A DNA stretch of 64,000 bases from a bacterium (GCA_021788365.1 JAJYKS010000001.1:3887-67886); one strand, 5' to 3'; shown: positions 1 through 22,972, counted from the first letter of the stretch. A program made the numbers and translations. Notes: generated from the letters alone by a model not told the origin.

Positions 1-592
1 GGGGTAGGCCACCCACAAAAAATTGTGTGGCTTCGACGTTGGAGTAGCGATTGGTCTTTTCTACCATTTGCTCCAAAGAAGCATCTTTGTGGTGCTCCAT
101 ATGGCTACTCAGCGTACCGAACGTGCCTTTCACGAAAGGAAGAGCATGTATATCGTGCGGCCAGTCGACGAAATCAAGTTTATGGAAAAGTCGCGCAACA
201 AGATCGTTGCCGAAACCACCATGTCGGAGTGGGTATCCAAGAGAATAGTTGCGGCGGGGGAGATAAAACGCAGAGATACTAGAAGAGCGATGAGAGATTC
301 TAGAAATAATTTCCTTGGCGAGGGCGGGAGTCACAATCTCGTCGTAGTCCATAACCAGGACCCAGTCCCCTGCCGCTTCGCGCACCTGGCGGGCACGAAT
401 TTCTTCGACGACTTTTGGTGTTCGCACTTCTACAACCTTTGCGCGGTATTTCTTGAAAAGAGTGCGGGCGGCACTATCGCTGCGCTCCATATTGAAAATA
501 ATAAGCTCGTCGGCAAAACGTACTGATTCGAGCATCCTAGCAAAGATAGTGAGATCGTCCTCACGAGCTATCTGGGTGCTAACGGTGAGCAT
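1..592 (-). CDS. GT2-like glycosyltransferase, partial (C-terminus lies beyond the window start); not in the ORF track because there is no stop codon inside the window
   Basis: Manual minus-strand translation from ATG 590-592 (alternative ATG 533-535) is open to position 1. It reads MLTVSTQIAREDDLTIFARMLESVRFADELIIFNMERSDSAARTLFKKY...AAGDWVLVMDYDEIVTP...LPRRNYSLGYPLRHGGFGNDLVARLF. These are degenerate GT2 Rossmann and DxD-like (DYDE) motifs. The plus-strand ORF 23..526 is antisense to it. Confidence 0.4.
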   Translation of the reverse strand, partial: MLTVSTQIAREDDLTIFARMLESVRFADELIIFNMERSDSAARTLFKKYRAKVVEVRTPKVVEEIRARQVREAAGDWVLVMDYDEIVTPALAKEIISRISHRSSSISAFYLPRRNYSLGYPLRHGGFGNDLVARLFHKLDFVDWPHDIHALPFVKGTFGTLSSHMEHHKDASLEQMVEKTNRYSNVEATQFFVGGLP

Positions 593-2066
593 AGGCTGCC
601 CTTCGCACACCCACATACGTTGGCGTTGTGACAACAACGCGATCACCCGTGGGAATGTACTTTTCGTCTGCTGTGGCCATTAATGCGTTTACGTCGTGCG
701 CGCCAAGATAGGCGCGGAATTCGTCTATGTTGTAGAAGAACCGCACCGTCCCAGCCGTGTAGTAATAGGTAATGGCGGGCATCCCACCATAGCGAAAGCT
801 GCTTGATAAGCGTGCTGTAGTTGGCAAGACTGCCATTGCTTCCCGCTCCGAGGGAGGCACAAGGACGGCAAGCTCACCACTTCCCAATTTGCTCATCTCC
901 ATGGCAACTTCGATACGGTCTGGTGCGGGGACTGAGGCTTTTCCAAACTCAACAGATTTCGATGCGATAAATAGTGCTTGCACTGCAACGCCGACTGCAA
1001 GGATTGTGACAACACGGTGTGCAGCAACGCTTTCACCCCAACGGGCTATAGCCTCGGCTATAACGAGTGCGATGGCTGGGTATATGGGGAGAATGTACCA
1101 AAAGAGGCGAGTTTTGGCGAGGGTGAAGACAGCGAGTGGCATGAGGAGCCACCATAGTAAAGTTATTGGAAATAGATTACGGCGGACTGTATCAAAAAAT
1201 GGTTTTTTGCTACGGAGGCGTAGCAGCAAGCTGGCAACTCCAATACTAAGCACCGTGAGCGCCCCAATGCCAAGGTTTTGATAGAGATATACGAGATAGT
1301 ACCACCGCGATTCAAAGTGAAATTCTATTTGGGTACTGGCACGCTGAATGACTTGTTCTAAGAGGTATGGCTGGTAGAATTCCCGACCATACGCAAAAAG
1401 AGCATAAAGGTGCCAGGGAAGGGTGAAAATTAGTATATAGAATATCGTATTTCGTATATAGCGAAAACTTTTGGGGAAAAATAAAGGCGCGGCAATGATG
1501 ACTGCCAGGAAGCCATCGAGTCCCTTGAACCAAACGGCGCCGGCTACGGCTGCTGCCACCCACCATGCGGGCTTGTTTTCGAGGAGGAAAAGGACGGTAG
1601 TCGTAATACCAGCTAGTAGCGGCATGTCGGTATTGACTGCGCGTGTCCGCTGCAAAAATAACGATAGCGTCGCGAGTATCCCAGCGGCAAGCAGCCCGTG
1701 CCGCCAAGAGCCGAGGTGCGTACCAATGCGATAGACAATGTACAGTGTGTAGATTGCAAATAGTGGCATGAGGAGCCGGGCGCCAAGCGCGGTAGGGCCC
1801 GTGAGGGCAATGCCGATCGCAGAAACCCAGGCTATACCGGGCGGCTTTTCGAACCACACGGCACCATTCCAAAATGAGACAAAAAGATTTTTGCGGATGA
1901 GGAGCTCGCGGCCCAGTTCGCCGTAGATACCTTCGTCCCAATCGAAGAGATAATCGCGACCAAGATGGGTATAGAGGATGGCGGCTAGCGCAACGAGAAA
2001 TATGGCAAAAAACCAATAGTGCCAATTACTTTTTAGTTTTTGCCACAAGGGCGAAGATTTTGTCAT
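579..2066 (-). CDS. GT-C fold membrane glycosyltransferase (ArnT/PMT-like, GT39/GT83 family)
   Basis: 495 aa polytopic membrane protein. The first extracytoplasmic loop carries 'FDWDEGIYGE', resembling the DE motif of ArnT/PMT enzymes. There is a soluble C-terminal domain. ATG start confirmed at 2064-2066. Confidence 0.7.
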   Translation of the reverse strand: MTKSSPLWQKLKSNWHYWFFAIFLVALAAILYTHLGRDYLFDWDEGIYGELGRELLIRKNLFVSFWNGAVWFEKPPGIAWVSAIGIALTGPTALGARLLMPLFAIYTLYIVYRIGTHLGSWRHGLLAAGILATLSLFLQRTRAVNTDMPLLAGITTTVLFLLENKPAWWVAAAVAGAVWFKGLDGFLAVIIAAPLFFPKSFRYIRNTIFYILIFTLPWHLYALFAYGREFYQPYLLEQVIQRASTQIEFHFESRWYYLVYLYQNLGIGALTVLSIGVASLLLRLRSKKPFFDTVRRNLFPITLLWWLLMPLAVFTLAKTRLFWYILPIYPAIALVIAEAIARWGESVAAHRVVTILAVGVAVQALFIASKSVEFGKASVPAPDRIEVAMEMSKLGSGELAVLVPPSEREAMAVLPTTARLSSSFRYGGMPAITYYYTAGTVRFFYNIDEFRAYLGAHDVNALMATADEKYIPTGDRVVVTTPTYVGVRRAAYAHR

Positions 2067-2976
2067 TCTGATTACCCATTTTACCAGTAAGATAATCGAA
2101 AAACGCCATACGGCGAATGGGGCTGCTCCAGTTACGGGTTAGTGCTTCTTTTATGAGTGCCAAAAATAGGCGGAAGGTGCCATACCGGCGACCGATATAA
2201 AAGCGGTTGCGGGTAATGTAATAGTCGACGAGCGGGCTCCCCGCGACGGTGGAAGAAGAGTTGCGGTGGTATACCACGAGGGTGGGATTGTACATAACCT
2301 CTATCCCTGCTTTCTTGGCTTTGAGGCAGTAGTCGGAATCTTCGAGGTAGAGAAAAAAGGGCTCATCCAAGAAACCGATTTTTTTGAATACCTGTCGAGG
2401 GATAGCGATGAAACAGCCGGTAATAAAATCGACCGGCTTTGCATGATCGTACTGGCCATTATCCACCTCGTCTACACCGTAGTGGCGGGCGACAACACTC
2501 GTCCAGTCGAAGTAACCACCCGCGTACCAGATGATATTCCCCTGCCCTTTTTGCGGTTCATGGTATTCGAAACCCTTGGCGTAGTAGATCTTGCCACCTG
2601 CGATTCGATTCTTGCCGGCCACATACCGATAGGCGCGGAAAAAGAGATTGGGATCGACCACCGTATCGTTGTTTAAGATATAGACGACCTGGGCGCCCAT
2701 TTTCAATGCCTTCTTGGCTCCGATATTGTTGGCGACGGAAAAGCCGACGTTTTCGCCGACGATGAGGTCGATGTTGGGGCAGGCAGCTTTTAGTTCGTCT
2801 ACACACTCTTTGGACGAACCATTGTCTACCACGATTATGTAGGGTGCGTCTTTGCATTTCTCGATGCTACGCACGCAGAGGATGGTATCCTCGGCTTTTT
2901 TGTAGTTTATAAGGACAACGGCGTGTTTTGGGCCATGGGCCCATCGGCCTTTGGCCGATATTTTCTTTTTCTTCAT
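2026..2976 (-). CDS. Glycosyltransferase family 2
   Basis: 316 aa. 'VVLINYKKAEDT...IIVVDNGSS...YILNNDT' is a GT2 Rossmann/DxD-type signature. Overlaps the downstream GT-C gene by 41 nt (operon). Confidence 0.8.
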   Translation of the reverse strand: MKKKKISAKGRWAHGPKHAVVLINYKKAEDTILCVRSIEKCKDAPYIIVVDNGSSKECVDELKAACPNIDLIVGENVGFSVANNIGAKKALKMGAQVVYILNNDTVVDPNLFFRAYRYVAGKNRIAGGKIYYAKGFEYHEPQKGQGNIIWYAGGYFDWTSVVARHYGVDEVDNGQYDHAKPVDFITGCFIAIPRQVFKKIGFLDEPFFLYLEDSDYCLKAKKAGIEVMYNPTLVVYHRNSSSTVAGSPLVDYYITRNRFYIGRRYGTFRLFLALIKEALTRNWSSPIRRMAFFDYLTGKMGNQNDKIFALVAKTKK

Positions 2977-4628
2977 AGCCCCTTCGCTAGCTTTAGTGCT
3001 TTACGATGTGCACGGTGAAGAAGCTTGGTGGCGCCGGTGGTACTTTCAATCGCCAAAGTGGTAAGCCAGTAGGTGAGTTCGTTACCCTTGCCGCGAAGCG
3101 ACGCAAATAATGTTCGTGTTTCTTCGGTTGTCAGTTCTTTTCGCTTCCCTTGTAGCTCCCACAAGTAGACGTACGCCAATAGCGTCTGCGCTCCCATCAT
3201 GGCGGATAAGATGAGGCCATACATACCGTCTTTCCACCCCTCGGTGAGGAAGAAGCGGCGCATAAATTCACTCATGGGTTTCCCCAGCAGGTCGAGTGAG
3301 GTGAATTTCACCCCTTCGGTATTTAAGATGTTTGCGTACTCGCGGGGATACTCCACCATGTTCTTGACGACAAACTCCGACACCGTGTCGTAGTTGTGGT
3401 GGGCGAGATTTCCTGTTGCCGTTGCCGTGGTGCCGTTACCCTTTATAAAACCGGCCCGCTCGTGTACATCACCCGTGAACTGCACCATTTTGGGGCGGAA
3501 GAAGACAAGGCGATAATCGGGATACCAGTCGCTGTGCTCGATCCATTTCCCAAAGATTTGGTTCTTACGCGGGACTTTGACGCCGTCTAAGTAAATATCT
3601 TTAGCGAAAAACTGCAGTTCTTTGGCGAGTTGCTTCTCTACCACTTCGTCAGCGTCGACCATCAAGACCCAGTTGTAGGTGGCCACCTTCGACAGTGCAA
3701 AATTACGCTGCGCGGCGAAGGTATCCAGCTCGCGGGCAAGGATGGTAACTTTGGGAAATTTCTTTCCGCCATAGGCGGATCGGCCTATGGCCGAGGCTAT
3801 TGCCAGGGTCTTGTCCGTACTGCCCGAGTCGATTATGTAGATGTCCGATACCCAGGAAAGTGATTTGAGGCAGCTTTCCAGATCCTTTTCTTCGTTTTTG
3901 GTCAAAACAACGGCCGCAATTGTTGGCTTGAGCGTCTTTTTCTTCCATGAACTGGCCTGGAAGTGATAGGAATAAGAATCCTCTGCGGTCCCGAACTCGT
4001 AGCCTTTTTTGAGTGCGGCCTGCACGTAGAGATAGTCGTTTGACACGGCGGTACTCGTGCCAAACTTGCCGGCCGTGGGGTAGTGACCGAGTGCGTCGTA
4101 GTCTTCTCGCTTCTGCAGCATGGGGATAAAGAACCCATCCTCGACGAATCCTGTTGCTTTCCGCCCTTTGCACCAAGCTATGAACTCGCTCTCCTTAAAT
4201 TCCGAGGGGAGTACGCCAAAGTCTTTTTGGATGTTGGTTTTGTACACAGGGATGATCCCCGGCTCCACTAATCTGCCGGAAATGAGGCGTTTGGGTTGCC
4301 AATACTTTAAGAGATTACTGTCCCAGTGCGGGGCAAAATATTGGTCGTCGGTCGCGAATACTAGCCAGTCGGTCGTTGCGACTTCGGCGCCACGGTTCCA
4401 GTTCCCGTACGGCCCAAGATTGTCTTTGTTTACCCACGCCTTGACCCCATGTTTTTTGCAGACTTTGAGAATATCCTGATTTACTTTGCCGGTGTTCATG
4501 TCTGGGTCTACGACAATCACGAATTCCACTTCGCAATCGCTGTTCTTCTTGATACTTTCTATGGCAAGGTCCAATTCTTCCCAGGCGTTGACAGTGGGGA
4601 TAATGACGCTCACTTTTTCTTTTTTCAT
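2973..4628 (-). CDS. Two-domain GT2-like glycosyltransferase
   Basis: 551 aa. N-terminal 'VSVIIPTVNAWEEL...FVIVVD...DWLVFATDDQYF' and second module 'AAVVLTKNEEKDLESCL...YIIDSGSTDKT' each resemble a GT2 catalytic domain. 4-nt overlaps with both neighbours. Confidence 0.65.
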   Translation of the reverse strand: MKKEKVSVIIPTVNAWEELDLAIESIKKNSDCEVEFVIVVDPDMNTGKVNQDILKVCKKHGVKAWVNKDNLGPYGNWNRGAEVATTDWLVFATDDQYFAPHWDSNLLKYWQPKRLISGRLVEPGIIPVYKTNIQKDFGVLPSEFKESEFIAWCKGRKATGFVEDGFFIPMLQKREDYDALGHYPTAGKFGTSTAVSNDYLYVQAALKKGYEFGTAEDSYSYHFQASSWKKKTLKPTIAAVVLTKNEEKDLESCLKSLSWVSDIYIIDSGSTDKTLAIASAIGRSAYGGKKFPKVTILARELDTFAAQRNFALSKVATYNWVLMVDADEVVEKQLAKELQFFAKDIYLDGVKVPRKNQIFGKWIEHSDWYPDYRLVFFRPKMVQFTGDVHERAGFIKGNGTTATATGNLAHHNYDTVSEFVVKNMVEYPREYANILNTEGVKFTSLDLLGKPMSEFMRRFFLTEGWKDGMYGLILSAMMGAQTLLAYVYLWELQGKRKELTTEETRTLFASLRGKGNELTYWLTTLAIESTTGATKLLHRAHRKALKLAKGL

Positions 4629-6145
4629 ATACGGTGCTCCTCTTTTTCTAGCGTGGCTTCAAGTTCGGCGGCTTTGTTGCTTTTTCCAATCATCCCCCAC
4701 CAATTTACAAATTCGACTCTAATCCGCTCACGATCTATGGCAAGGATGACCAGTGTATATGTTACCACCCCTATAACAACGGTGGCTACCAGTGTCACCA
4801 GGTCGTGCGTGATCACCCTATTGGCGAGATAGGTGACCGCGGACATGACGAGTGCGGCATACAGCGGCTTTTTAACCGAGTTCCATGTTTCTACGTGTAC
4901 CACCCTATTCATTGCGTAGACGACGAACGGTAGGGTCGTGTAGGTAATAATGAGGCCTGCAATCGCGATACCCACAAAGCCGTAGCGGTGGATGAGCGGG
5001 AGCCCTAGTCCCCATGTCATGGCCGTGTAGACAACCATAAATAGGAGCACAATCTTGGGACGACCCAGGGCGTAGAGCGCGTTGGTGTATGTCGTCGTTA
5101 CAATAATCGGGAAGGCTCCCGCCAGGAAAAGAAGAAGTGTGGGCAGGGCCGGCAGCCATTTGGCGCTCTTGTCGGCGTACAAATACTGCAATATGCCAGG
5201 TGCGACTATGAGCAGCCCCGCGATCATCGGCATGTAGATGTACGCCATGAACGATACCGATTTTTCGATCCAGCGCTTGATACGCGGTTTATCATGCTGG
5301 ATGCGGGAGTAGGCGGGGAACATAACACGAGAAACAATATCGATGATCTCCATGGGACGTGTGGCAATATTTTCTGCGAGGGTCACGAAGCCAACTGCGG
5401 CAGGCCCAAACCAAAAGGCAATGACGGTCGGGGTTATGTTGTCTTTGAGGAGGGACAGCGCGGAGTTGAGCTGGTACGGGACGCCGAAATGCAGAAGCTC
5501 GTGAGCGGAGGTGCGCGAGATGTGCCACCCAATTTTCCATGGACGTAGTAGGTTCAAGGTCACCGCGCCTACAACGCTACGCACTACAACGGCGATGACC
5601 AGACTCCACACACCATAGCCAGAAAGCGCCATGACGACGGCGATCGCGTCGTACGTCAACGATTCGACGATGTCGGGGATTATGAGTATGTCGAATTTGA
5701 GCTGACGCTCGAGCATAATTGAAGGAATAGTCTTGAATGACGTCACAAACAGGGAAAGCGAGAGCACGCGGATGAGCCAGACACCTTGTGCTCCAAGGTT
5801 ATACGCGCCAGCCAGGTATGGTGCGGCGATCCATGCGGCAGCAAGGAGCGCAGTCACTAAAAGCTGTTGGATGGTAAAGGTAGTCTCCGCATCTTCCTGG
5901 GTAATCTCTTCTTTCTTTTGGATAAGGGCAGCACCGAAGCCGACGTCAGAGAAGAACGAAAGGAAGGTAAAGACGATAAAGCTGACAATACCAAAGATGC
6001 CATATGCACTTGTCGACAGGGCGCGAGCTAGAAATATGACGGCGACGGTGTCAAAAACTTTAAGGATGAGCCTACGAAATGTTAGGGTAAATACCCCCTT
6101 GAATGCGCGAGATTTAAGATGTTCTAGATCAATTGATTCTGCCAT
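4625..6145 (-). CDS. Wzx-like oligosaccharide/polysaccharide flippase (MOP superfamily, polysaccharide biosynthesis protein)
   Basis: 506 aa, about 12-14 transmembrane segments. N-terminus 'FKGVFTLTFRRLILKVFDTVAVIFLARALSTSAYGIFGIV...AALIQKKEE' is typical of Wzx/RfbX family proteins. Confidence 0.75.
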   Translation of the reverse strand: MAESIDLEHLKSRAFKGVFTLTFRRLILKVFDTVAVIFLARALSTSAYGIFGIVSFIVFTFLSFFSDVGFGAALIQKKEEITQEDAETTFTIQQLLVTALLAAAWIAAPYLAGAYNLGAQGVWLIRVLSLSLFVTSFKTIPSIMLERQLKFDILIIPDIVESLTYDAIAVVMALSGYGVWSLVIAVVVRSVVGAVTLNLLRPWKIGWHISRTSAHELLHFGVPYQLNSALSLLKDNITPTVIAFWFGPAAVGFVTLAENIATRPMEIIDIVSRVMFPAYSRIQHDKPRIKRWIEKSVSFMAYIYMPMIAGLLIVAPGILQYLYADKSAKWLPALPTLLLFLAGAFPIIVTTTYTNALYALGRPKIVLLFMVVYTAMTWGLGLPLIHRYGFVGIAIAGLIITYTTLPFVVYAMNRVVHVETWNSVKKPLYAALVMSAVTYLANRVITHDLVTLVATVVIGVVTYTLVILAIDRERIRVEFVNWWGMIGKSNKAAELEATLEKEEHRI

Positions 6146-7521
6146 TATTCCAAAATCCCCCGAGCCGATAGCGTAAACTCACCTGCTCTTGGCATATTCC
6201 CGTATTCTACCTGCAACGAGGCATTGTTGCATAGGACCCGTGGACCGTTTTCCCCTGATAGTGCGTAGGAGACTTCGAGCGGCGACGTGCCGGTGCCTAC
6301 AATATCCCAGGAACTTTCGCTACACGCGTGTGTTGCTTGTATCATTTGCTCTGCCCGCACCGCCATGTCGGCACGCTTTATTGTCCAGTGTGTTTTTATG
6401 GAGAGCTGCACGGCAACAGCCGAGACCACGACCATTCCTGTAGCGATCGCAAGTTGTCTCCAACCTTTTAGTGGCGAGAGCAATAATATGAGGAGTGGCA
6501 CTAAACCAACATCCAGGTAATGAGGATAGTAGTGAGCAGGAATAGCTACGACCGGCGCGATCCCGACGAGCCACCATAGGAAGAGTACGGCGCTTTGCCG
6601 GCGAGCCACTTCGTCCCCCCTTATTACCAAGAGCGCGGTCCATATCATTACAATGGACGAGATGACGAGGCTCCATACGGTGACGACTCCAGCCTCTATA
6701 CCAAAATCGCTAAAAAATTGGCGGAAATTTACCGCTAAGTGCGGGGCAGCGTAGGAGGTCACAAGTTCGGGGAGGCCAAACGGGAACCACCAATACCAAC
6801 GCAGACCGCCGATTACGTTGGTGCCAAAGATCATGTGGTAATCGGATTGGACGTGGATGCCGGCGGATAATCGGAGAAGTAGGTAGCAAGTAGCAAGAAT
6901 TATGTAAGGAACAAAATTGACAAAATATTTCTTATTGACGATGCGAAAGCCATTTTGATATTGGGTGAGGAGGAAGGCGACTACGGGTGTGACGATGGCC
7001 GTTTCTTTGGCAAGCAGTCCAATGCCAAAAAACAGGGCGGAGCGCCAGAATTTTTTATCGAGAAAGTAGTTTAACGAAAGGAGGCTGAAACAGGCCGCCA
7101 AAAGTTCTTGCGTGGCGGCGATGTAAAAAAGACTTAGAAAATGTACTGCCGAGGTCGCGTACAGAAGACCTACCAGAACCGCGAGACGTGAGTTTTTTGT
7201 CAATTTCTCTACTAACCGCAATACGAGGTAGGCATTTGCTGCTTGTATAAGCACCATGAAACCATGCATCGCGAGCGGGGCGCGGCTTAGACCAAAGAGC
7301 AGCACACTCAGATAATAGTAGAGTTGGGTACCTAAGGGACGATAGAAGGCAAAACCTGATTGTGCAAACGGCGAGAAAAACGCAAATACCTCACCGATAT
7401 TTTTGGCGTGACTAATGGAGAGAAAATAAAAATCATCCTGGGAAAAGCCATACTTTAGCGATAAGCCATACATGGCAAATGTCGCAAGTAGCATGAGCAA
7501 AAAACGCTTTATGTTAGACAT
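6145..7521 (-). CDS. GT-C-like polytopic membrane glycosyltransferase (PMT_2/ArnT-like)
   Basis: 458 aa integral membrane protein. Early loop motif 'FSQDDFYF' (DD/DE motif). About 11 transmembrane segments. Confidence 0.55.
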   Translation of the reverse strand: MSNIKRFLLMLLATFAMYGLSLKYGFSQDDFYFLSISHAKNIGEVFAFFSPFAQSGFAFYRPLGTQLYYYLSVLLFGLSRAPLAMHGFMVLIQAANAYLVLRLVEKLTKNSRLAVLVGLLYATSAVHFLSLFYIAATQELLAACFSLLSLNYFLDKKFWRSALFFGIGLLAKETAIVTPVVAFLLTQYQNGFRIVNKKYFVNFVPYIILATCYLLLRLSAGIHVQSDYHMIFGTNVIGGLRWYWWFPFGLPELVTSYAAPHLAVNFRQFFSDFGIEAGVVTVWSLVISSIVMIWTALLVIRGDEVARRQSAVLFLWWLVGIAPVVAIPAHYYPHYLDVGLVPLLILLLSPLKGWRQLAIATGMVVVSAVAVQLSIKTHWTIKRADMAVRAEQMIQATHACSESSWDIVGTGTSPLEVSYALSGENGPRVLCNNASLQVEYGNMPRAGEFTLSARGILE

Positions 7522-9049: not shown

Positions 9050-9054
9050 AGTTT

Positions 9055-13950: not shown

Positions 13951-14666
13951 GTGCTTTTGTGTAGTTCTTTGTAGAGCCGAAAACTCTCACGCGCAGCGCG
14001 GGCGATGACACGCCAGTTACCGCCCGTTTGGGCGCCAAATTGACGGGCATAGTGACGGACCGGGAGTTGTTTGATCCGATACCCTCTTGCTGTCGCTTTT
14101 ACCAAAAATTCGGTGACGGTGATGGCACTCTCTGTTTGGAGGGTGATACTGTCCCGCACTTTTCTCGTAAAGAGCTTGTATGCGCAATCAACGTCGCGGA
14201 CGGTAAGACCGAAAAGCACATAGTCCCAGACTTTGAGGAGTACTTGGGCGACGAAGACGCGGTGGAAGGGGTCCATGCGCTTTTTGCGATAGCCGATGAC
14301 GAGATCCGCGCTGTCTGCGGCTGCAATAAATTTCGGTAGTTCGTCGAAGCGGAATTGGCGATCGCTATCGGTAAAGAAGATCCAGTCGTATTTTGCCCCC
14401 TTCATCCCCGACTTTACTGCGGCGCCGTACCCTTTATTTTCCGTGTGGCTTATGAGGCGAATGTGCGCGTCTTTTTTGGCAAGCGAGCTAACAATCTTCG
14501 CTGTGTTGTCGCGGGAGCCATCGTTTACCACGATGATTTCGTATTGCCGTGCTACCTGGCGCGCGGCTACTGCTGCTTCGTTTACGACCGTCGCTATGTT
14601 CTCTGCCTCATTGTATGCGGGCATAAAAATCGAGAGCGAAGAAAGTTTTTCCTGCTTCTTTAGCAT
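13947..14666 (-). CDS. GT2 polyprenyl-phosphate sugar synthase-like glycosyltransferase
   Basis: 239 aa. 'LSIFMPAYNEAENI...EIIVVNDGSRDNT...IFFTDSDRQF'. 4-nt overlap with the downstream GT-C gene (ArnC/ArnT-like pairing). Confidence 0.8.
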   Translation of the reverse strand: MLKKQEKLSSLSIFMPAYNEAENIATVVNEAAVAARQVARQYEIIVVNDGSRDNTAKIVSSLAKKDAHIRLISHTENKGYGAAVKSGMKGAKYDWIFFTDSDRQFRFDELPKFIAAADSADLVIGYRKKRMDPFHRVFVAQVLLKVWDYVLFGLTVRDVDCAYKLFTRKVRDSITLQTESAITVTEFLVKATARGYRIKQLPVRHYARQFGAQTGGNWRVIARAARESFRLYKELHKST

Positions 14667-14671
14667 GAGGA

Positions 14672-16360: not shown

Positions 16361-16382
16361 GCAGTTATGCTACCATAAACAC

Positions 16383-17537
16383 ATGTGGAAACAGATGGGG
16401 ATCGTGGTAGCCGTTGCACTTGCCTCGCTCGCACTTTTTTGGCTACCCTTTTTTACCAAGACGGATACGTTCTGGGGTATCACCTTTGGTGGCCAAGGAT
16501 TACAGGTCATTTCGCAAAATTTTGACGGAGTGAACTTCCTTATCGTTGCCAAGACCCTGTACGATCCCGCTAGTCTCTCTACCCTTACTCACGCCATGGG
16601 CGTTGCCAATACTCCCCTCTATTTTACTGCTCACTACCCCCTCTTCCCTTTGCTTATCCGATTATTTTTGACCATTTCTCGCGGGCCATACGCGCTTTTA
16701 TACGCGATCATCGTTTCCAATATCCTGCTCTCCGTGGGCCTCGTAATGTTTTTCCACACGGTGGTACCCAACAAAAGATTGGCGTTGTGGTTATCGCTTT
16801 TTGCGCTACTTCTTCCTGCTCGCATGTTATCTGACCGAGCGGTGGGAGCAAACGAGCCACTCTTTCTATTTTTCTCACTCACCTCCCTTGCTGCGGCATA
16901 TAAAGGAAAACACTTCCTCGCCGGTGGTTTGGGCGCATTGGCCGTCCTCACCCGGAGCCCTGGAATCTTACTTTTTGGTGGGTACGTCCTGGCAGCTATT
17001 GCCGCTTCACCCCGAGATATTCGCACCATCGTGAAACGAATAGTCCCCTATTTGACGATCCCGGTGGCACTTTTGGCGCTTGTCGCATTTTATGGATGGC
17101 GCTATGGCAGTCCCCTCGCCTATCTCAACTCCGGGGTGAGTCTTAACCTGGAACTCCCCCCTTTCCGCGCGTTTGGCACGAATGAATCGTGGGTCTCTGG
17201 CATGTGGCGAGATGACATCTGGTACGTATACCTACTGTTTGGCATGGGGATGCTGCCACTCGTCTCCAAACTAAAACTGGGAGAGCGCTTTGAGAGTTTG
17301 GTGATCCCGCTCTATGGTGCTATCTACTATGTATCGCTCTTTTTTGTAGCACATCGAGATATTGCACGCTACTCACTTCCCCTCGCGCCACTTGTTATCC
17401 TTGGATTCTCGCCGTGGATCGCGCGGCGCGAGGTGCGGTGGCTACTCCTTCTCCTTCTTATTCCCGTCTACCTATTGGGGTGGCAATTTGTTTTGCAAAA
17501 TATCCAGCCGATTGCAGACTGGACACCGCTGCTGTAA
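16383..17537 (+). CDS. Polytopic membrane protein, unknown function (possible GT-C-like)
   Basis: The ORF track starts at a TTG at 16335. The more likely start is ATG 16383 (MWKQMGIVVAV...) or 16395. About 11 transmembrane segments. Divergent from 14672..16360. Confidence 0.45.
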   Translation: MWKQMGIVVAVALASLALFWLPFFTKTDTFWGITFGGQGLQVISQNFDGVNFLIVAKTLYDPASLSTLTHAMGVANTPLYFTAHYPLFPLLIRLFLTISRGPYALLYAIIVSNILLSVGLVMFFHTVVPNKRLALWLSLFALLLPARMLSDRAVGANEPLFLFFSLTSLAAAYKGKHFLAGGLGALAVLTRSPGILLFGGYVLAAIAASPRDIRTIVKRIVPYLTIPVALLALVAFYGWRYGSPLAYLNSGVSLNLELPPFRAFGTNESWVSGMWRDDIWYVYLLFGMGMLPLVSKLKLGERFESLVIPLYGAIYYVSLFFVAHRDIARYSLPLAPLVILGFSPWIARREVRWLLLLLLIPVYLLGWQFVLQNIQPIADWTPLL

Positions 17538-17540
17538 CGA

Positions 17541-18725
17541 TTACTTCTTCCCTCGACCTTGCTCGGGACCATGAGCCTTCCAGATGATGCGGTCGTAGGC
17601 GAAGAAGTTCCAGAACATACCGACAAAGATGCCGACCACGGCGTACATGACACCGGTGTCGACCGCTAGGTGAATTACGGGAACGGTAAAGAGTGGGCGT
17701 AGACCTATTGTAAATTGGCCCACTATCGCGATGCCCTGTTGTATGAGAATGCTCCCAGCAGAGGCTAGGTTAAATTGGATAAATTTGGATGGTATATCGA
17801 TTGCTCGTAGTTTGCGATCTGAAAATGTGTAGAGATTGCTCCAAATGAAATTGCTTACGATGGATGTCTCTATGGATAGAAAGAAAGCCAACTGAAATGG
17901 CATAACCTTGCGATAGAGATATAGAAACGTAAACTGCACGAGCGCCCCAAAACCACCGACCACGACGAACTTGAAAAGACGATTGTTGAGAATGTCGTGG
18001 AGACGTAATTTCATAATAAAGAGTAAGTTGTTGATAATATATTCCGGCCCGAGTTTCGACTTTCCTTCTGTTCGATCCTTAAATACAAAGGGAACCTCCG
18101 CAACCTTAAAGCCTGACTGTAGTGACTTTACGAGAAAACCTATCTGCCACGTATAGCCGGTAAATGTTTGGCCGCCTAGCTCGGGGATAATCTTCTCCAC
18201 CACCTTGCGGCGGATGGCGCGGTAGCCACTGGTCCAGTCGCGGACGTGTGGGTTGAGCATGACTGTTTCTATAAAGAGATTGCCGACTACCGAAAGAAAT
18301 TTCCGGTGAAAACCCCAGTTTTTCGGGATACCACCACCGTGGATATACCGACTGCCAAGGACGAGATCTGCACCGCTCTCGATGGCTTCCAGCATGGCTG
18401 GAATACGGGAGGGATCGTGTTGCAGGTCGGCATCAAACTCGAAAACAACGTCTGCATGTAGTTTGTCGAGCGAATAAATCATTCCCTTTTTGTACGCATG
18501 ACCTAAGCCACCTTTTCTCTTGTTCATGAGGATGTGAACCCACTTGTACTTGAACATGAGATCACGTACGACCGCGGCGGTGCCATCGGGCGAGCTGTCG
18601 TCTACGAATAAAAGCTGCATGTTGTACGAGCTCAGCGACTTGAAGATGGGTGCAAGCGCCAGGACAAGTGCTTTTACATTGCCTGATTCGTTATAGGTGG
18701 GTACGATGACAACAACATTTTTCAT
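17541..18725 (-). CDS. GT2 polyprenyl-phosphate glycosyltransferase fused to a C-terminal GtrA-like membrane domain
   Basis: The ORF track begins at a TTG (18782). The first ATG is 18725, giving MKNVVVIVPTYNESGNV...LLFVDDSSPDGT. The C-terminal 120 aa are hydrophobic and GtrA-like (FVVVGGFGALVQFTFLYL...). Confidence 0.75.
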   Translation of the reverse strand: MKNVVVIVPTYNESGNVKALVLALAPIFKSLSSYNMQLLFVDDSSPDGTAAVVRDLMFKYKWVHILMNKRKGGLGHAYKKGMIYSLDKLHADVVFEFDADLQHDPSRIPAMLEAIESGADLVLGSRYIHGGGIPKNWGFHRKFLSVVGNLFIETVMLNPHVRDWTSGYRAIRRKVVEKIIPELGGQTFTGYTWQIGFLVKSLQSGFKVAEVPFVFKDRTEGKSKLGPEYIINNLLFIMKLRLHDILNNRLFKFVVVGGFGALVQFTFLYLYRKVMPFQLAFFLSIETSIVSNFIWSNLYTFSDRKLRAIDIPSKFIQFNLASAGSILIQQGIAIVGQFTIGLRPLFTVPVIHLAVDTGVMYAVVGIFVGMFWNFFAYDRIIWKAHGPEQGRGKK

Positions 18726-18729
18726 ATGA

Positions 18730-19695
18730 TTATTTGTTCCGATAATACTCAATAGTCTTGCTAAGACCGGCCTCAAAGTCAATTTTTGGTTCCCAGCCGA
18801 GCAAATTTATGGCTTTTGCTATATCAGGCTTGCGACGGGTAGGATCATCCGGGAGTATTGGCTTTTTCACTAGCTCCAGTTTTTCACCGGAGATTTTCTC
18901 GGCGAGTTCTATCGCCGACAAAATCGTGAATTCGCCGGGATTGCCGAGATTCACCACTTCGCCCACCATTTTTTCATTCTGAAAAACCCGAAAGATACCT
19001 TCAACGAGGTCGTCGACGTAGGTAAAAGAACGGGTTGCAGAGCCATCCCCGTAAAGGACAAACGGTTTTTTGTGTACAACACTGTCTACGAGATTTATGA
19101 GAAAGCGGCCGTCATCGAGGCGCATACGGGGGCCATAGGTGTTGAAGATACGAACAATCTTAATTTTCGTCCCGCGCGATCGGTAATAGGCAAACGCCAG
19201 GGCTTCCATAAAGCGCTTACCCTCGTCGTAGCAGCTCCGGACACCTGTCGAGGAAACGTTGCCCCAGTAGGTTTCTGGTTGTGGGTGGACTGCGGGATCG
19301 CCATATACTTCGCTTGTCGAGGCAAAAATGATGGGGCAGCCGGCAGTGGTTGCCAGATCCAGCATGTTTTTGGCACCGACACTATTGGCGAGCATGGTCT
19401 CCACCGGGTGATTGACGTAGGAGTCGGGAGCCTCGGGGTTTGGCGAGGCGGGCGAGGCAAAGTGGAGGATAGCGGTGAGAGATTCTAGGAGAGAGATTTT
19501 AGATTCTAGGGGAGTAGTTACGTCATGCTCCAGCAGGGTAAAGTGGGGATTGCCGACAAGGTGGGTGGTGTTGTCGCGGGAGCCACTCGAGAAATTGTCG
19601 AGACAGACGACGTCGTATCCCTCCTGTATAAACCGATCACACAGGTGGCTACCGATGAACCCTGCTCCGCCGGTTATCAAAATTTTATTCATCAT
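18730..19695 (-). CDS. UDP-glucuronate decarboxylase (UDP-xylose synthase)-like SDR
   Basis: 321 aa. 'KILITGGAGFIGSHLCDRFIQEGYDVVCLDNFSSG' and 'VRIFNTYGPRM' match UXS/ArnA-decarboxylase family hallmarks. Neighbour of ugd. Confidence 0.7.
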   Translation of the reverse strand: MMNKILITGGAGFIGSHLCDRFIQEGYDVVCLDNFSSGSRDNTTHLVGNPHFTLLEHDVTTPLESKISLLESLTAILHFASPASPNPEAPDSYVNHPVETMLANSVGAKNMLDLATTAGCPIIFASTSEVYGDPAVHPQPETYWGNVSSTGVRSCYDEGKRFMEALAFAYYRSRGTKIKIVRIFNTYGPRMRLDDGRFLINLVDSVVHKKPFVLYGDGSATRSFTYVDDLVEGIFRVFQNEKMVGEVVNLGNPGEFTILSAIELAEKISGEKLELVKKPILPDDPTRRKPDIAKAINLLGWEPKIDFEAGLSKTIEYYRNK

Positions 19696-19725: not shown

Positions 19726-19768
19726 GAGCGCGAGATCATTCCCTCGACTTCGCTCGGGATGGCTATAT

Positions 19769-20737
19769 CTATATTTTTTCTAATTGTAAGTCAGCTTCGA
19801 CCATTAAGCGAACGAGTTCGTCGAAGCTGGTTTTGGGCACCCAGCCCAGCTTTTCTTTGGCTTTGGCAGGATTGCCGATCAAATGGTCTACTTCTGCCGG
19901 CCTGGTGTAGCGGGGATCGTTCCAGACCACTTTGTCTTCCCAATTCTTAATACCTGCGACGGTAAAGGCTTTTTCGGCAAACTCACGAATGGCGTGCGTC
20001 TCGCCGGTCGCGATAACATAGTCATCAGCCTCTTGCTGTTGCAGCATGAGCCACATCATCTCTACGTAGTCGCGGGCATAGCCCCAATCACGTTTACTAT
20101 CAGGGTTGCCAAGGTATAGTTTGTCAGCTTTCCCGTATTTGATTTTGGCTACGGTGCTACTAATTTTGCGCGTCACAAACTCCAATCCTCGGCGGGGAGA
20201 CTCGTGGTTGAAGAGAATGCCGGAGACGGCAAATAGATTGTACGACTCGCGGTAGTTTACCGTGATCCAGTGACCGTAAACCTTGGCTACCCCATAGGGG
20301 CTCCGTGGATAGAATGGTGTTTTTTCTGTTTGTGGTATTTCCTGTACTTTGCCAAACATTTCACTACTACTCGCCTGATAGAACTTCGCATCCGGTTTTG
20401 CCATGCGCATAGCGTCCAACATTCTGGTGACACCGAGTGCAGTACTCTCACCGGTGTACCCTGGTTGTTCCCAGCTCGCTTTTACGAAACTTTGGGCGGC
20501 AAGATTGTATATTTCATCGGGACACGCCTCTTGTATTGCTTGGTAGAGTGAGTATTGATCGATGAGGTCGCCCGACAAAAGATGGATTTTGTCTACAATA
20601 CTCTCTATACGTGAGTAGTTTGGTGTTGATGTGCGGCGCGAGAGGCCGTAGACCTCATATCCTTTTTCGAGCAAGAACTCTGCGAGGTAGCTTCCGTCCT
20701 GGCCGGTAATACCGGTAATTAAAGCTTTCTTTGGCAT
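19769..20737 (-). CDS. gmd: GDP-mannose 4,6-dehydratase
   Basis: 322 aa. '[28 protein letters not shown]' is the classic Gmd N-terminus. Conserved throughout. Confidence 0.85.
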
Positions 20738-20738
20738 A

Positions 20739-21641
20739 TTACTGTTTTCTCCAAAAATCTAATACATTTATTATAGTCTTGTCTAGGGGTATTGTGGGTG
20801 TCCAGCCGGTTGCCGCTACAAATTTGCTATTGTCGGCTACTAGAATTGGCACGTCGGCAGTACGCTGGTTCCCGACATCTATACGTATAGGTATATCTAT
20901 TTTGGTAACTTTGCGGAAGAGTTCGATGACGTCGTGGATGCTGACCCCATGCCCTGAGCCTATGTTGTATACTTCGCCACTCTTACACTTCTCTCCGGCC
21001 AAAATATAGGCATCAACCATGTCTTCCACGTCGGTAAAATCCCGTATCGTGGCTGTATTACCGACAACTATTTCAGATATTTCACCTCGCTCGGCACTGA
21101 CAAACTGTTTTGCAAGGGCCGGGATCACGAAATTTGGCGTTTGACCAGGACCAGTGTGGTTGAACGGGCGCAAGATCACTATATCCATGTTGTATGCGAG
21201 GTAATATTCCTGTGCCAGGAGTTCTTGTGTTACTTTGGATACAGCGTACGGATTCAGGGGGCGCTGCGGACACGTTTCTTTTATCGGCGTATCGACAGCT
21301 GCGACTAAGCCGTACCCATTTGCTGAGCAGATCGCGACGATGCGGGTTCCTGGCGCGTGGAGTCGCACGGCTTCGAGTATGTTGTATTGCAACACACTGT
21401 TTGCGGTCAGGATTTGCGGCGCATTTCGCTCACTCCCCTCAACCACGGAGAGCGCCGCCAGCTGATACACAACGTCTGGCTTTGTCTCTTGTATAAGGCG
21501 CTCGGTGTAGGCAAAATCGGTGAGATCGGTTGTGGGACTATACACGGATTGACTGACGGTATATCCCTTTTTCTCAAGTTTCGCCACCAAATGTTTTCCT
21601 ACGAATCCCCCTGCGCCGGTGACCAAAATTTTATGCGTCAT
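20739..21641 (-). CDS. rmd: GDP-4-dehydro-6-deoxy-D-mannose reductase (Rmd-like NAD-dependent epimerase/dehydratase)
   Basis: 300 aa. '[15 protein letters not shown]', '[10 protein letters not shown]', 'FVIPALAKQ', 'YNIGSGH' parallel Pseudomonas Rmd motifs. Adjacent to gmd. Confidence 0.6.
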
Positions 21642-21643
21642 AA

Positions 21644-21680
21644 AATTTAATTTTCAATTATCAATTTCCAATTTTCAAAT
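21644..21680 (-). promoter_or_regulatory. AT-rich AATTGAAAATTG-type upstream element (rmd gene)
   Basis: Minus strand TTGAAAATTGGAAATTGATAATTGAAAATTAAATTTT immediately followed by ATG 21641. Possible -35 TTGGAA / -10 TAAATT and a leaderless start. Confidence 0.35.
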
Positions 21681-21682
21681 AC

Positions 21683-22972
21683 TTACCTTCCGATACCTTT
21701 ATACTGCAGGCCGGCGGCAGTAACGGCAGCGGGATCGTATTGGTTGCGGGTATCAAAAAAATATTTTGGTGCCACCATACTTGCTGCAATTTTCCCTAGG
21801 TCAAGTTTTTTATATTCGTCCCATTCTATAAGAAGCATAGCAATGTGTGCCCCACGGACTGCCTCGTAGGCATTTTCTACATAGGTTACGCTACTTGGTA
21901 GAAGTGGTTTGCTTTCGTCTATGGCTTTGGGGTCTGTTGCGCGTACTATTGCACCATGTTCTATGAGCCACGGAACTATTTTGAGTGAAGGGGCAACGCG
22001 TGTGTCGTTGGTGTTTGGCTTGAACGATAGACCTAAAATCCCAACCGTTTTTCCTGCAAAGCCACCTACCAATTTGTCGTATTTTTCCATGAGGCGCGGG
22101 ATTCGTTTTTCGTTGAGATCGTCGACAGCAATAAAGATACTTTCTGTCTCCCCCACAGTACGGGCATATGCGGCGATTTCCTTTACGTCTTTAGGGAAAC
22201 ACGATCCACCGTACCCCAAACCGGGATACCAATAGTGGGTGCCGATACGCTTGTCTTGACCAATACCAGCCAACACTTCTTGAACATCCGCGCCATTCAG
22301 CTCGCACAGATCAGCCATTTGGTTGGCAAAGGTTATACGCGAGGCAAGGTAAACGTTTGCTGCGTATTTTGCCATCTGTGCTGACTCTGGTCGTACAATA
22401 ACAACATTCTTGGTCAGCGACTCATGCAGTTTCGTGAGCGTCGCTATTGTCCGTTCGTTTGTCGCTCCTATTACCGCTCGATCTGGATGGAGCGTATCCT
22501 CTACCGCTGTCCCCTCTTTTAGAAACTCGGGTACCGAGGCGATATCAAAGAAAACTTTCGTACCTCTTTCAATGATCTCATGAACTTTGCTGTTGGTGCC
22601 AGGTGGAACGGTGCTCTTGACGATGACAATTGCCCCCTCTTTTAGATAAGGAGCCATCGCTTCTGACGCTGCGTATACATATTTGAGATCGGCCGTGCCA
22701 TCCGCGGCCGATGGCGTGCCTACCATAATCATTACGATGTCGGCACCCGATATCGCTAACTCGTATGAAGTAGTAAACGTGAGATGACCCTCTGCCTGCG
22801 TTTTTACCAACAGTTCCTGCAACCCTGGCTCATAAAATGGTACAACCCCATGCCGGAGTGAATCGATCTTTTTTTCGTCGATGTCGAGACCAACGACTTC
22901 GTTCCCTAGGCTAGCGAATACCGCGGCCGTCACCACTCCGACAAATCCTGTGCCGATACATGCGATTTTCAT
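21683..22972 (-). CDS. ugd: UDP-glucose 6-dehydrogenase
   Basis: 429 aa. 'MKIACIGTGFVGVVTAAVFASLGNEVVGLDIDEKKI' NAD-binding N-terminus and the UDPG/GDP-mannose dehydrogenase family architecture. Confidence 0.8.
   Translation of the reverse strand: MKIACIGTGFVGVVTAAVFASLGNEVVGLDIDEKKIDSLRHGVVPFYEPGLQELLVKTQAEGHLTFTTSYELAISGADIVMIMVGTPSAADGTADLKYVYAASEAMAPYLKEGAIVIVKSTVPPGTNSKVHEIIERGTKVFFDIASVPEFLKEGTAVEDTLHPDRAVIGATNERTIATLTKLHESLTKNVVIVRPESAQMAKYAANVYLASRITFANQMADLCELNGADVQEVLAGIGQDKRIGTHYWYPGLGYGGSCFPKDVKEIAAYARTVGETESIFIAVDDLNEKRIPRLMEKYDKLVGGFAGKTVGILGLSFKPNTNDTRVAPSLKIVPWLIEHGAIVRATDPKAIDESKPLLPSSVTYVENAYEAVRGAHIAMLLIEWDEYKKLDLGKIAASMVAPKYFFDTRNQYDPAAVTAAGLQYKGIGR

Follow-up and report, generated by a model that had tools for sequence, protein, structure and literature searches.

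A conserved Microgenomates locus of clustered GT-C glycosyltransferases and polyprenyl-phosphate-sugar synthases predicted to assemble a surface glycan

Introduction

GtrB, ArnC and dolichyl-phosphate mannose synthase (DPMS) make polyprenyl-phosphate-linked sugars, and glycosyltransferases of the GT-C type take sugars from such donors on the outer side of the membrane. Characterised GT-Cs of the YfhO, PMT_2, GT87 and PIG-V types act on lipoteichoic acid (LTA), wall teichoic acid (WTA), rhamnan, lipomannan and lipoarabinomannan (LM/LAM) or glycosylphosphatidylinositol (GPI). In monoderm bacteria, GT-A/GT-C gene pairs are documented, as are soluble GT-A enzymes combined with a Wzx-type flippase (PMC8035078). 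For protein O-mannosylation in Actinobacteria, one Pmt together with one Ppm is enough (PMC5882110). Here, we describe a locus at one end of a 64,000-nucleotide stretch of bacterial DNA (GCA_021788365.1, JAJYKS010000001.1:3887-67886; hereafter the window), which encodes eight GT-C candidates together with three synthases of the ArnC/GtrB/DPMS type, a flippase and nucleotide-sugar enzymes.

Homologues of the window proteins come almost exclusively from genomes labelled "Microgenomates group", "Candidatus Woesebacteria", "Blackburnbacteria" or "Patescibacteria group", and the window carries traits typical of the Candidate Phyla Radiation (CPR, or Patescibacteria), namely a sortase and a 23S ribosomal RNA (rRNA) gene with group I intron-like insertions and a LAGLIDADG open reading frame (ORF). 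On these grounds, we treat the host as a member of the Microgenomates group, an ultra-small bacterium with a genome that is likely smaller than 1 Mb. In full-text searches of the literature, GT-C clusters were not linked to Patescibacteria by any paper found; one Microgenomates genome paper reports 29 glycosyltransferases as a count only, and envelope glycans are not discussed in a review of Patescibacteria biology.

Results

Eight GT-C candidates among 13 consecutive genes

Between positions 579 and 17537, the window encodes seven confirmed GT-C enzymes, five assigned by Pfam and two by AlphaFold2 (AF2) models compared with solved structures in Foldseek, and one probable GT-C. We label the GT-C candidates C1 to C8, the two glycosyltransferase family 2 (GT2) synthases without transmembrane (TM) helices s239 and s250, and the GT2-GtrA fusion synthase DPMS. 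Family calls used the Pfam gathering cut-offs (26.1 bits for PMT_2, PF13231; 22.7 for PMT, PF02366; 26.4 for PTPS_related, PF10131; 25 for GT87) and covered most window ORFs of at least 150 amino acids (aa), the remainder overlapping annotated genes, plus 9.4 kb upstream. The genes of the locus are:

1-592, minus strand: 3' part of a 260-aa gene, weakly GT2-like (Glycos_transf_2 21.4 bits, below cut-off), which extends beyond the window start; gene call made on the contig
579-2066, minus strand: C1, PMT_2, 495 aa, about eight TM segments, D42-W-D44-E45 after TM1 (PF13231 46.3 bits)
2026-2976, minus strand: cytoplasmic GT2 of the Leloir type, weakly rhamnosyltransferase-like, no TM helix (Glyco_tranf_2_3 54.4 bits; TIGR01556 71.8 bits, below cut-off)
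2973-4628, minus strand: cytoplasmic protein with two GT2 domains, 551 aa, no TM helix (Glycos_transf_2 116.7 bits in two stretches)
4625-6145, minus strand: Wzx/MOP-family flippase (Polysacc_synt_3 203.7, Polysacc_synt 77.3, MurJ 47.6 bits)
6145-7521, minus strand: C2, 458 aa, no Pfam match, GT-C by AF2 and Foldseek, D29-D30 in loop 1
7514-9049, minus strand: C3, PTPS_related/YfhO-like, 511 aa, H34-D35 (PF10131 42.2 bits)
9055-10557, minus strand: C4, PMT/PMT_2 (GT39-type), 500 aa, D38-E39 (PF02366 32.3, PF13231 30.8 bits); core member
10565-11686, minus strand: C5, GT87/MptA_B-like, 373 aa, probable GT-C (GT87 18.4 bits, below cut-off; precomputed match to PF26314, MptA_B_family)
11661-12413, minus strand: s250, GT2 of the polyprenyl-phosphate-sugar synthase type, without the C-terminal TM anchor of GtrB/ArnC (against the PDB: GtrB 57.2, ArnC 46.3, DPMS 38.7 bits)
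12427-13950, minus strand: C6, PMT_2, 507 aa, E34-D35-E36 (PF13231 43.8 bits); core member
13947-14666, minus strand: s239, GT2 of the polyprenyl-phosphate-sugar synthase type, no TM helix (ArnC 80 bits, catalytic domain only)
14672-16360, minus strand: C7, YfhO/PTPS_related, 562 aa, H34-D35-D36 (PF09586 41.5, PF10131 26.5 bits)
16395-17537, plus strand: C8, Gpi18/PIG-V-like, 380 aa, no Pfam match, GT-C by AF2 and Foldseek; anchor of the conserved core
17541-18725, minus strand: DPMS-type polyprenyl-phosphate-hexose synthase, GT2 plus GtrA-like domain of four TM helices (GT2 92.7, GtrA_DPMS_TM 59.2 bits)
18730-19695, minus strand: UXS, UDP-glucuronate decarboxylase (UDP-xylose synthase; human UXS1 311 bits, E ~9e-92)
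19769-20737, minus strand: Gmd, GDP-mannose 4,6-dehydratase (TIGR01472 456.6 bits against an equivalog cut-off of 415)
20739-21641, minus strand: Rmd-like GDP-6-deoxy-D-lyxo-4-hexulose reductase (2PK3 195.2, 6X3B 144.9, Fcl ~58 bits)
21683-22972, minus strand: Ugd, UDP-glucose 6-dehydrogenase, three UDPG_MGDP_dh domains (TIGR03026 413.4 bits against 189.8)
22985-23695, minus strand: Nudix hydrolase, first gene of the nucleotide-sugar operon (NUDIX 49.7 bits); retained in the closest relatives

From 23695 down to 579, C8 is the only gene not encoded on the minus strand, and no gap or overlap between neighbours exceeds 73 nt. C8 sits between two operon-like runs: Nudix, Ugd, Rmd, Gmd, UXS and DPMS on one side, and on the other C7, s239, C6, s250, C5, C4, C3, C2, Wzx, the protein with two GT2 domains, GT2, C1 and the 260-aa gene, a run that goes on beyond the window start and in which, from 16360 to 579, genes overlap or lie apart by 41 nt or less. 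The clustering is not a matter of chance: GT-C candidates make up eight of 13 genes in a row, and 80 related genomes show the arrangement again. A plus-strand ORF at 23-526 was discarded as a spurious shadow of the true minus-strand 260-aa gene.

An acidic motif follows soon after the first TM helix in all eight proteins (D44 in C8, in the numbering of the 380-aa protein) and is invariant in the family alignments of C2, C5 and C8. For C2 and C8, homologues were collected and aligned, AF2 models were built and these were searched against the PDB. The C2 model (pLDDT 94.3) matched STT3, AglB, PglB and Pmt4 best, at probability 1.00, and also DPY19, PimE and Emb; among 84 homologues collected, a few matched PMT_2, and D29-D30 was invariant in the 44 that were aligned. 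The C8 model (pLDDT 89.6) matched ALG9, ArnT, AglB, PIG-U, AftB, ALG3, PimE and ALG6 at probability ~1.00. Its homologues carry the label "Gpi18-like mannosyltransferase", and 42 of them align with 48 invariant residues, including N42-F43-D44-G45. All confident matches of both models are GT-C enzymes, with identities of 9-16% and TM-scores of ~0.45-0.55, a range that does not tell oligosaccharyltransferases from other GT-Cs. The C2 sequence holds no WWDxG-type motif. Both proteins also gave weak matches to the NCBIfam family "cell surface glycopolymer formation protein". An identity of C2 and C8 as transporters was rejected, their matches to the major facilitator superfamily having a probability below 0.25 and TM-scores below 0.2. 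The most likely start of C8 is the ATG at 16395, which agrees with the NCBI gene call and with the homologues, rather than the TTG at 16335, which overlaps the start of C7; from this ATG, the divergent C7 and C8 genes lie 34 nt apart.

The Pfam-assigned enzymes fall into several families. C3 is a paralogue of C7 (BLASTP E=3.8e-45), and C6 is duplicated in Woesebacteria, where one to three copies are present. C4 has 985 homologues at 45-65% identity across Microgenomates, labelled "glycosyltransferase family 39 protein". Only ~8 of 120 listed C4 orthologues match PF02366, most matching PMT_2 (PF13231) alone, and the C4 sequence has no match in the PDB, including the solved Pmt1, Pmt2 and Pmt4; on this sequence evidence, C4 is not firmly placed within the PMT family proper. 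The C6 sequence likewise found no match in the PDB. We keep C5 at "probable" because the GT87 match is below threshold (in the family, E=0.002 in two of 11 members, also under the cut-off) and profile-profile comparisons are weak (20% probability against the C2 family, 8.5% against the C8 family). A search with the C5 family profile gave no PDB match, PimE included, and D104 is invariant in 11 homologues. Kinship with solved GT-Cs can be recognised at the fold level only.

The locus is truncated by the window start and continues for at least 9 kb upstream, of which 9.4 kb was looked at. This DNA was read on contig DAHXIW010000001.1 (579,774 bp) of the metagenome-assembled genome GCA_027372535.1, where window position p equals record position p + 18,572. 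Besides the 260-aa gene, the 9.4 kb encodes:

a PIG-V-type GT-C (Mannosyl_trans2 27.5 bits against 22.4)
a 553-aa PMT_2 protein (45.1 bits)
a 453-aa protein with a sub-threshold PMT_2 match and a "DWDQ" loop motif
a 421-aa multi-TM protein without Pfam match
a GT4
a GT2
a lipoprotein

With two to four GT-Cs upstream, the total comes to 10 to 12 GT-C genes in ~33 kb, or ~5.7% of the 580-kb contig.

A preliminary description of this DNA, made from the sequence alone, had pointed to a dense GT-C cluster with DE/DD loop motifs. The cluster is real and was slightly understated, as the six genes it listed all hold (by Pfam, or by fold for C2), an acidic loop-1 motif can be read in all eight, and more GT-Cs lie beyond the window start. 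Its two additional candidates are probably 16335-17537 (C8, a GT-C by fold) and 10565-11686 (C5, only probable). As a check, it had suggested that the membrane proteins might instead fall into unrelated families such as transporters; the assignments are to GT-C families in Pfam and to GT-C folds in Foldseek.

Synthases, flippase and nucleotide-sugar enzymes

The locus also encodes three GT2 enzymes that are confirmed, as sequence-based predictions, to be polyprenyl-phosphate-sugar synthases of the ArnC/GtrB/DPMS type. Their best NCBIfam matches are ArnC, PgfS, Dol-P-hexose transferase, PpgS and AglJ, all under the equivalog cut-offs. For s239, the sub-cut-off scores are ArnC 88, PgfS 72.6, Dol-P-hexose transferase 70.5 and PpgS 59.5 bits, and s250 matches PgfS and ArnC. 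The DPMS gene product is homologous to Pyrococcus furiosus DPMS (5MLZ) over its full length, including the GtrA-like domain (161.9 bits, E=2.4e-46). The s239 stop overlaps the C6 start by 4 nt and s250 overlaps the C5 start by 26 nt, which suggests co-translated partners. Having no TM helices and no GacJ-like partner, s239 and s250 might dock on their GT-C partner or on another membrane protein. The Wzx protein also matches NF007773 (169.5 bits, below the cut-off of 273).

Within the nucleotide-sugar operon, UXS adjoins DPMS and Rmd adjoins Ugd. The Rmd-like enzyme is predicted from its homologues to yield GDP-D-rhamnose or its C4 epimer, GDP-6-deoxy-D-talose. A dedicated link of UXS to DPMS, which would have hinted at a polyprenyl-phosphate-xylose donor, was not borne out: of the 68 DPMS genes in related loci, just 12 directly adjoin UXS, mainly in close relatives.

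A syntenic core is conserved across Microgenomates

One genome per GTDB species was scanned with the C8 family alignment, which yielded 191 relatives. The best 80 loci were kept with 10-kb flanks each, and all window proteins were mapped onto their ORFs; counts for related loci refer to this set. In the coordinates of the locus, the conserved core order is C4, s250, C6 (one to three copies), s239, C8 (opposite strand) and DPMS. This core is found in Woesebacteria, Blackburnbacteria and other Microgenomates, with C8 identities of 34-58%. In 47 of 50 loci, the gene directly after s239 encodes a C6-type GT-C, and a GT-C comes after s250 in 54 of 61. C4 comes after a synthase gene in 28 loci, and in 63 of 65 no more than one gene separates DPMS from C8. 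The 36 full-length loci, of ~21 kb each, hold a median of five GT-Cs (range 1-8) and three synthases. In the closest relatives (L006, L013, L016, L021 and L023), the whole order from Wzx to Nudix is common to all, and the synteny of the Nudix gene is kept from L006 to L023. The accessory GT-Cs (C1, C2, C3, C5 and C7) and the sugar genes differ among relatives. Because 80 related genomes share this syntenic core, we regard the locus as lineage-conserved envelope machinery and part of the chromosome backbone, not a variable island.

Genes that recur near the core are trmD, rmlA/B/C/D, a CAP-domain protein gene, FtsEX/PcsB-like genes and ATP synthase. The 80 loci, covered to 10 kb from the core, contained no homologue of the giant surface proteins, the poly-Ser protein or the Wzy_C protein, and three of them carried a sortase; neither an initiating transferase nor an LCP ligase was among the recurrent neighbour families.

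Some relatives carry a 623-aa membrane protein of an "HDSLWH" family in the C7 position. Members of this multi-TM family (~560-620 aa, no Pfam match) flank C8 on one or both sides in L011, L014, L016, L017, L019 and L023 (for example L023 8263-10134), and it is probably a further YfhO/PTPS-like GT-C family. In 23 Woesebacteria loci, a 295-aa cytoplasmic protein of no assigned family is encoded between C8 and DPMS.

The preliminary description had counted three GT2 enzymes of the ArnC/DPM1 type, a Wzx flippase, and UDP-xylose and GDP-D-rhamnose branches. These readings are borne out by the closest solved homologues of the GT2s (ArnC, GtrB and DPMS), by the Polysacc_synt_3 score of the flippase, by family models for Ugd and Gmd, and by the closest characterised homologues of UXS and Rmd. 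The pairing of donor synthase and GT-C that it noted is conserved across the 80 genomes.

Neighbouring genes

On the side away from the window start, the locus is flanked by trmD, a sortase gene, a gene for a 295-aa secreted protein and a dTDP-6-deoxyhexose set, with surface proteins further away:

24200-24790, minus strand: sortase (66.7 bits)
24756-25643, minus strand: 295-aa secreted protein with a poly-Ser/Pro stalk, C-terminal TM helix and basic tail, identified by sequence features; candidate acceptor
25651-26553, minus strand: RmlD-like reductase of the dTDP-6-deoxyhexose branch
26558-26980, minus strand: FdtA/WxcM-type cupin (89.8 bits), between the RmlB-like and RmlD-like genes
27008-28078, minus strand: RmlB-like dehydratase of the dTDP-6-deoxyhexose branch
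34006-34791: RmlA-like gene
36930-39269: giant surface protein, 779 aa, CARDB/DUF11 (family match)
39266-44182, minus strand: giant surface protein, 1638 aa, Big_13/fn3 (Ig-domain), with a Ser/Pro-rich pre-anchor region; 16 kb from the locus
55351-56601, plus strand: Wzy_C membrane protein (O-antigen ligase/O-oligosaccharyltransferase family), 416 aa (38.7 bits); 33 kb from the locus

FdtA-family enzymes are sugar 3,4-ketoisomerases. A classical RmlC is encoded in 15 related loci where this genome has the FdtA-type cupin, and because of this replacement the product of the dTDP branch here may not be L-rhamnose.

The proteins encoded at 24756-25643 and 39266-44182 both end in "(E/S)VLGA(S/T)T" followed by a TM helix and a basic tail, after poly-Ser or Ser/Pro stretches, and a protein of a relative (L058 8639-9112) carries "VLGASTELPATG" ahead of its TM helix. 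In Microgenomates, this shared ending may act as a non-canonical sorting signal or represent a pre-anchor motif that is conserved. The Wzy_C gene adjoins genes for Ser/Pro-rich secreted proteins (53596-55390) and a VanZ-like gene; its product could supply the ligase or polymerase that the glycan pathway lacks.

Several features of the remaining window were recorded in passing. GC content rises to 0.54-0.59 at 36000-40000 (~0.50 elsewhere), over the gene for the 779-aa protein and the 3' part of that for the 1638-aa protein, and overlapping ORFs at 36183-36950, 36851-37423 and 37002-37499, without family match, are probably spurious. The 23S rRNA gene (44559-48381, minus strand) measures 3,823 nt against a 2,925-nt model. 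Its group I intron-like insertions lie at 44993-45316 (47.8 bits) and 45814-46019 (40.6 bits), both just under the 50-bit Rfam cut-off, and a 133-aa ORF inside the gene (45886-46287) carries the LAGLIDADG-type motif "GFVDGEGCF"; a 23S rRNA gene of this kind is a known CPR trait. The 16S-23S spacer (48560-49451) contains tRNA-Ala (tgc) on the operon strand, tRNA-Ile (gat; 48895-48970) on the opposite strand and a complete AhpC/TSA gene for a Bcp-type peroxiredoxin (48981-49451, 137 bits). It is unusual for an rRNA operon to enclose a protein-coding gene and an inverted tRNA.

Discussion

The locus very probably encodes an extracytoplasmic, lipid-carrier-dependent glycosylation system, and the preliminary description, which had proposed glycosylation of this kind with polyprenyl phosphate as the carrier, is well supported in this respect. 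Given the family and fold assignments, the tight operons, the gene order and the conserved adjacency of synthases and GT-Cs, we infer donor sugars, flippase cargo, the assignment of synthases to GT-Cs, and the acceptor as follows. In the cytoplasm, Ugd and UXS would supply UDP-glucuronate and UDP-xylose, Gmd and Rmd would supply GDP-D-rhamnose, and the neighbouring dTDP branch would add a 6-deoxyhexose. Soluble GT2 and GT4 enzymes may assemble a short oligosaccharide on a polyprenyl carrier; such a lipid-linked oligosaccharide is implied by Wzx together with five cytoplasmic glycosyltransferase genes. The three ArnC/GtrB/DPMS-type GT2s would load polyprenyl phosphate with three different single sugars, Wzx would move lipid-linked material across the membrane, and the GtrA-like TM domain of DPMS may flip one of the donors. 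Outside, the eight GT-Cs of the window and the two to four beyond it would add sugars from polyprenyl-phosphate donors at the outer membrane face, a use suggested by their conserved adjacency to synthases. Each synthase gene lies beside that of its presumed GT-C: s239 with C6, s250 with C5 and C4, and DPMS convergent with C8.

In this scheme, the sugars would be added extracellularly to a membrane-anchored lipoglycan or a secondary cell-wall polysaccharide as the acceptor. We favour a polymer because the number and mix of GT-Cs (YfhO, PMT_2, GT87-like and PIG-V-like) fit systems that build or decorate polymers. One Pmt and one Ppm suffice for protein O-mannosylation and there are 8-12 GT-Cs here, so polymer building seems the better fit. 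By analogy, mycobacterial arabinogalactan and LAM and the decorated rhamnose polysaccharides of streptococci and lactococci serve as precedents. That the whole model is right, a lineage-conserved Microgenomates machinery that assembles a surface glycan in two compartments with a non-protein envelope polymer as acceptor, we consider an even proposition.

Several observations weigh against a polymer acceptor. The window and the 9.4 kb upstream yielded neither an initiating phosphoglycosyl transferase nor a Wzy polymerase, chain-length regulator, ABC exporter or LCP ligase, so that the polymer pathway as seen is incomplete: although Wzx is present, the locus does not make up a full Wzx/Wzy pathway. 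That an initiating transferase, a polymerase and a ligase are missing weakens the polymer and protein models alike. The sole Wzy_C protein is unlinked to the core in relatives. Neither a stand-alone GtrA flippase nor a GacJ-like partner for s239 or s250 is encoded at the locus, where intergenic gaps are below 75 nt.

The remaining contrary evidence is that which speaks for a protein acceptor, the preference of the preliminary description. Here, GT-Cs would glycosylate Ser/Thr-rich S-layer or sortase-anchored proteins from polyprenyl-phosphate-sugars, further GT-Cs would extend the glycan, and a Wzx-flipped oligosaccharide might be transferred en bloc. C4 passes the PMT (protein O-mannosyltransferase) cut-off, although most of its orthologues match PMT_2 only, and the best structural matches of C2 are oligosaccharyltransferases and Pmt4, at TM-scores that do not discriminate. 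The closest solved Rmd homologue, 2PK3, comes from an S-layer glycan pathway, that of Aneurinibacillus thermoaerophilus, in which D-rhamnose enters the S-layer glycan. Genes for the sortase and the poly-Ser/Pro secreted protein are found 1 kb away from the locus and that for the 1638-aa Ig-domain protein 16 kb away, and sortase is near-ubiquitous in Microgenomates (PMC6744442). The Pgf system of Streptococcus mutans and actinobacterial Pmt/Ppm1 are built from like parts, but 8-12 GT-Cs are far more than known bacterial protein O-mannosylation systems contain. The giant surface proteins proposed as acceptors in the preliminary description are real surface-type proteins, yet they have no homologue within 10 kb of the core in the 80 related loci, where the other candidate acceptor genes are lacking as well. 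Its step from "PMT-like" enzymes to protein or S-layer O-glycosylation does not follow, since PMT_2 and YfhO GT-Cs with GT2 synthases are standard polymer-decorating machinery of monoderm bacteria, where the same parts decorate LTA, WTA and rhamnose wall polysaccharides (PMC8035078); a secondary cell-wall polymer and a lipoglycan are options that this interpretation left out. Its view that the system does not make classical lipopolysaccharide (LPS) is reasonable, given the Microgenomates host, the sortase and the lack of any lipid A-type gene in the window, whereas its preference for protein or S-layer is unsupported. We regard protein O-glycosylation as a serious competing model, though a somewhat unlikely one.

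A narrower form of the polymer model, in which the GT-Cs elongate a glycolipid anchor into an LM/LAM- or GPI-type membrane lipoglycan that replaces LTA in these lipid-scavenging bacteria, draws on the resemblance of C8 to PIG-V/Gpi18, PimE and ALG9, on the MptA_B/GT87 matches of C5, on the likeness of the TM-less synthases to the catalytic domains of Ppm1 and PpgS, and on the weak glycopolymer-family matches of C2 and C8. The matches to mycobacterial enzymes are nevertheless all either sub-threshold or confined to structure, neither inositol chemistry nor a GT4 of the PimA/PimB type was identified, and Wzx and the cytoplasmic GT2 genes would be superfluous in an LM-type pathway, so that this version seems improbable to us. 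More remote still is a strain-variable, horizontally acquired island of the O-antigen or capsule type, which we consider extremely unlikely. Wzx, several GT2s and rare-sugar genes are typical of such islands, and the accessory GT-Cs and sugar genes do vary between relatives; however, the core order is kept at 34-58% protein identity across the class, GC content is 0.48-0.52 over the locus and its flanks alike, the flanks are conserved housekeeping genes, and no mobile-element genes occur at the locus. Horizontal acquisition was rejected on GC content and synteny.

The polymer model has a bolder extension, which we think doubtful as a whole: a principal Microgenomates envelope glycoconjugate made almost wholly outside the cell, in which 5-12 GT-Cs would be fed by three polyprenyl-phosphate sugars, some of the donors perhaps new to bacteria (for example polyprenyl-phosphate-xylose or polyprenyl-phosphate-D-rhamnose), the synthases docked on their coupled GT-Cs as self-contained modules, and the glycan serving as the host-contact layer of episymbionts. 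If true, this would parallel in function the assembly lines of mycobacteria and of the lumen of the endoplasmic reticulum (ER).

CPR genomes are tiny and many basic building blocks are not made, yet at least 33 kb is devoted here to surface-glycan assembly, and relatives retain the order of the core genes. This points to a conserved, uncharacterised envelope glycoconjugate in a major uncultivated lineage, a glycan that probably matters for envelope integrity and host contact. The conserved synthase/GT-C pairs are defined targets for heterologous biochemistry and a possible genomic marker of envelope type.

Among known systems, the lipid A aminoarabinose pathway (ArnA/ArnC/ArnT) is similar in combining Ugd, a UDP-glucuronate decarboxylase, an ArnC-like GT2 and an ArnT-like GT-C in one locus. 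In contrast, the decarboxylase here is UXS rather than ArnA, no ArnB aminotransferase or formyltransferase was found, and scores fall far below the models for ArnT (NF009784, 51.5 bits against 567) and ArnC (NF007986, 88 against 529). With scores 6 to 11 times below the equivalog cut-offs and neither ArnA nor ArnB present, this is not an Arn system, and a host with lipid A is very unlikely. The protein-glycosylation systems Pmt/Ppm1 and Pgf share the combination of a polyprenyl-phosphate-sugar synthase with a GT39/PMT-type or other membrane glycosyltransferase and target Ser/Thr-rich secreted or sortase-anchored proteins, such as are encoded near this locus; they use only one or two membrane transferases.

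In the ER lumen (ALG3/9/12, ALG6/8/10, PIG-V/Gpi18 and STT3, with DPM1 and ALG5), a glycan is likewise assembled in the cytoplasm, flipped and extended by GT-Cs from Dol-P-Man and Dol-P-Glc. ALG9 and STT3 are the top structural matches of C8 and C2, but at identities of 9-16% the kinship is at the superfamily level. An oligosaccharyltransferase signature was not seen at this locus. Mycobacteria and corynebacteria (Ppm1, PimE, MptA-D, Emb and Aft; PpgS/Rv3779) also use many GT-Cs to build and branch a polymer outside the cell, arabinogalactan or LM/LAM, from polyprenyl-phosphate-sugars, have synthase catalytic domains without TM helices (Ppm1 and PpgS), and export a lipid-linked primer first made by a cytoplasmic GT2. 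The resemblance is at fold level only, with a sub-threshold GT87 match and no sequence matches to solved structures. Mycobacterial genes are dispersed over a 4.4-Mb genome, whereas those described here are contiguous, with UDP-xylose and GDP-D-rhamnose genes in place of a decaprenylphosphoryl-arabinose (DPA) pathway. P. furiosus DPMS shares with its homologue here full-length homology and the combination of GT2 and a GtrA-like TM domain; in this genome and its closest relatives, in contrast, the gene directly follows UXS, an adjacency seen in 12 of 68 cases overall.

While its scale recalls glycan assembly in mycobacteria and the ER lumen, the predicted mechanism is that of the multi-component transmembrane glycosylation systems of Gram-positive bacteria (CsbB/GtcA/YfhO; CsdAB, CsdCD, CsdEF and CflA of Lactococcus lactis; GacI/J/K/L of Streptococcus pyogenes). 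These combine a GT2 synthase, a flippase and a PMT_2 or YfhO GT-C acting outside, and share with this locus adjacent GT-A/GT-C pairs and a monoderm envelope; among them is a version that pairs a soluble GT-A with a Wzx-type flippase (GacI/GacK) (PMC8035078). Unlike them, the locus encodes neither a stand-alone GtrA nor a GacJ-like partner, and one synthase is an archaeal-type DPMS fusion. Backbone genes for teichoic acid or rhamnan were not identified. Where those systems consist of single scattered pairs, the Microgenomates locus is unusual in gathering 8-12 GT-Cs and three synthases into one co-linear arrangement, in its apparent translational coupling of TM-less synthases to GT-Cs, and in conserving its core order over many Microgenomates lineages, all within a genome that is likely below 1 Mb.

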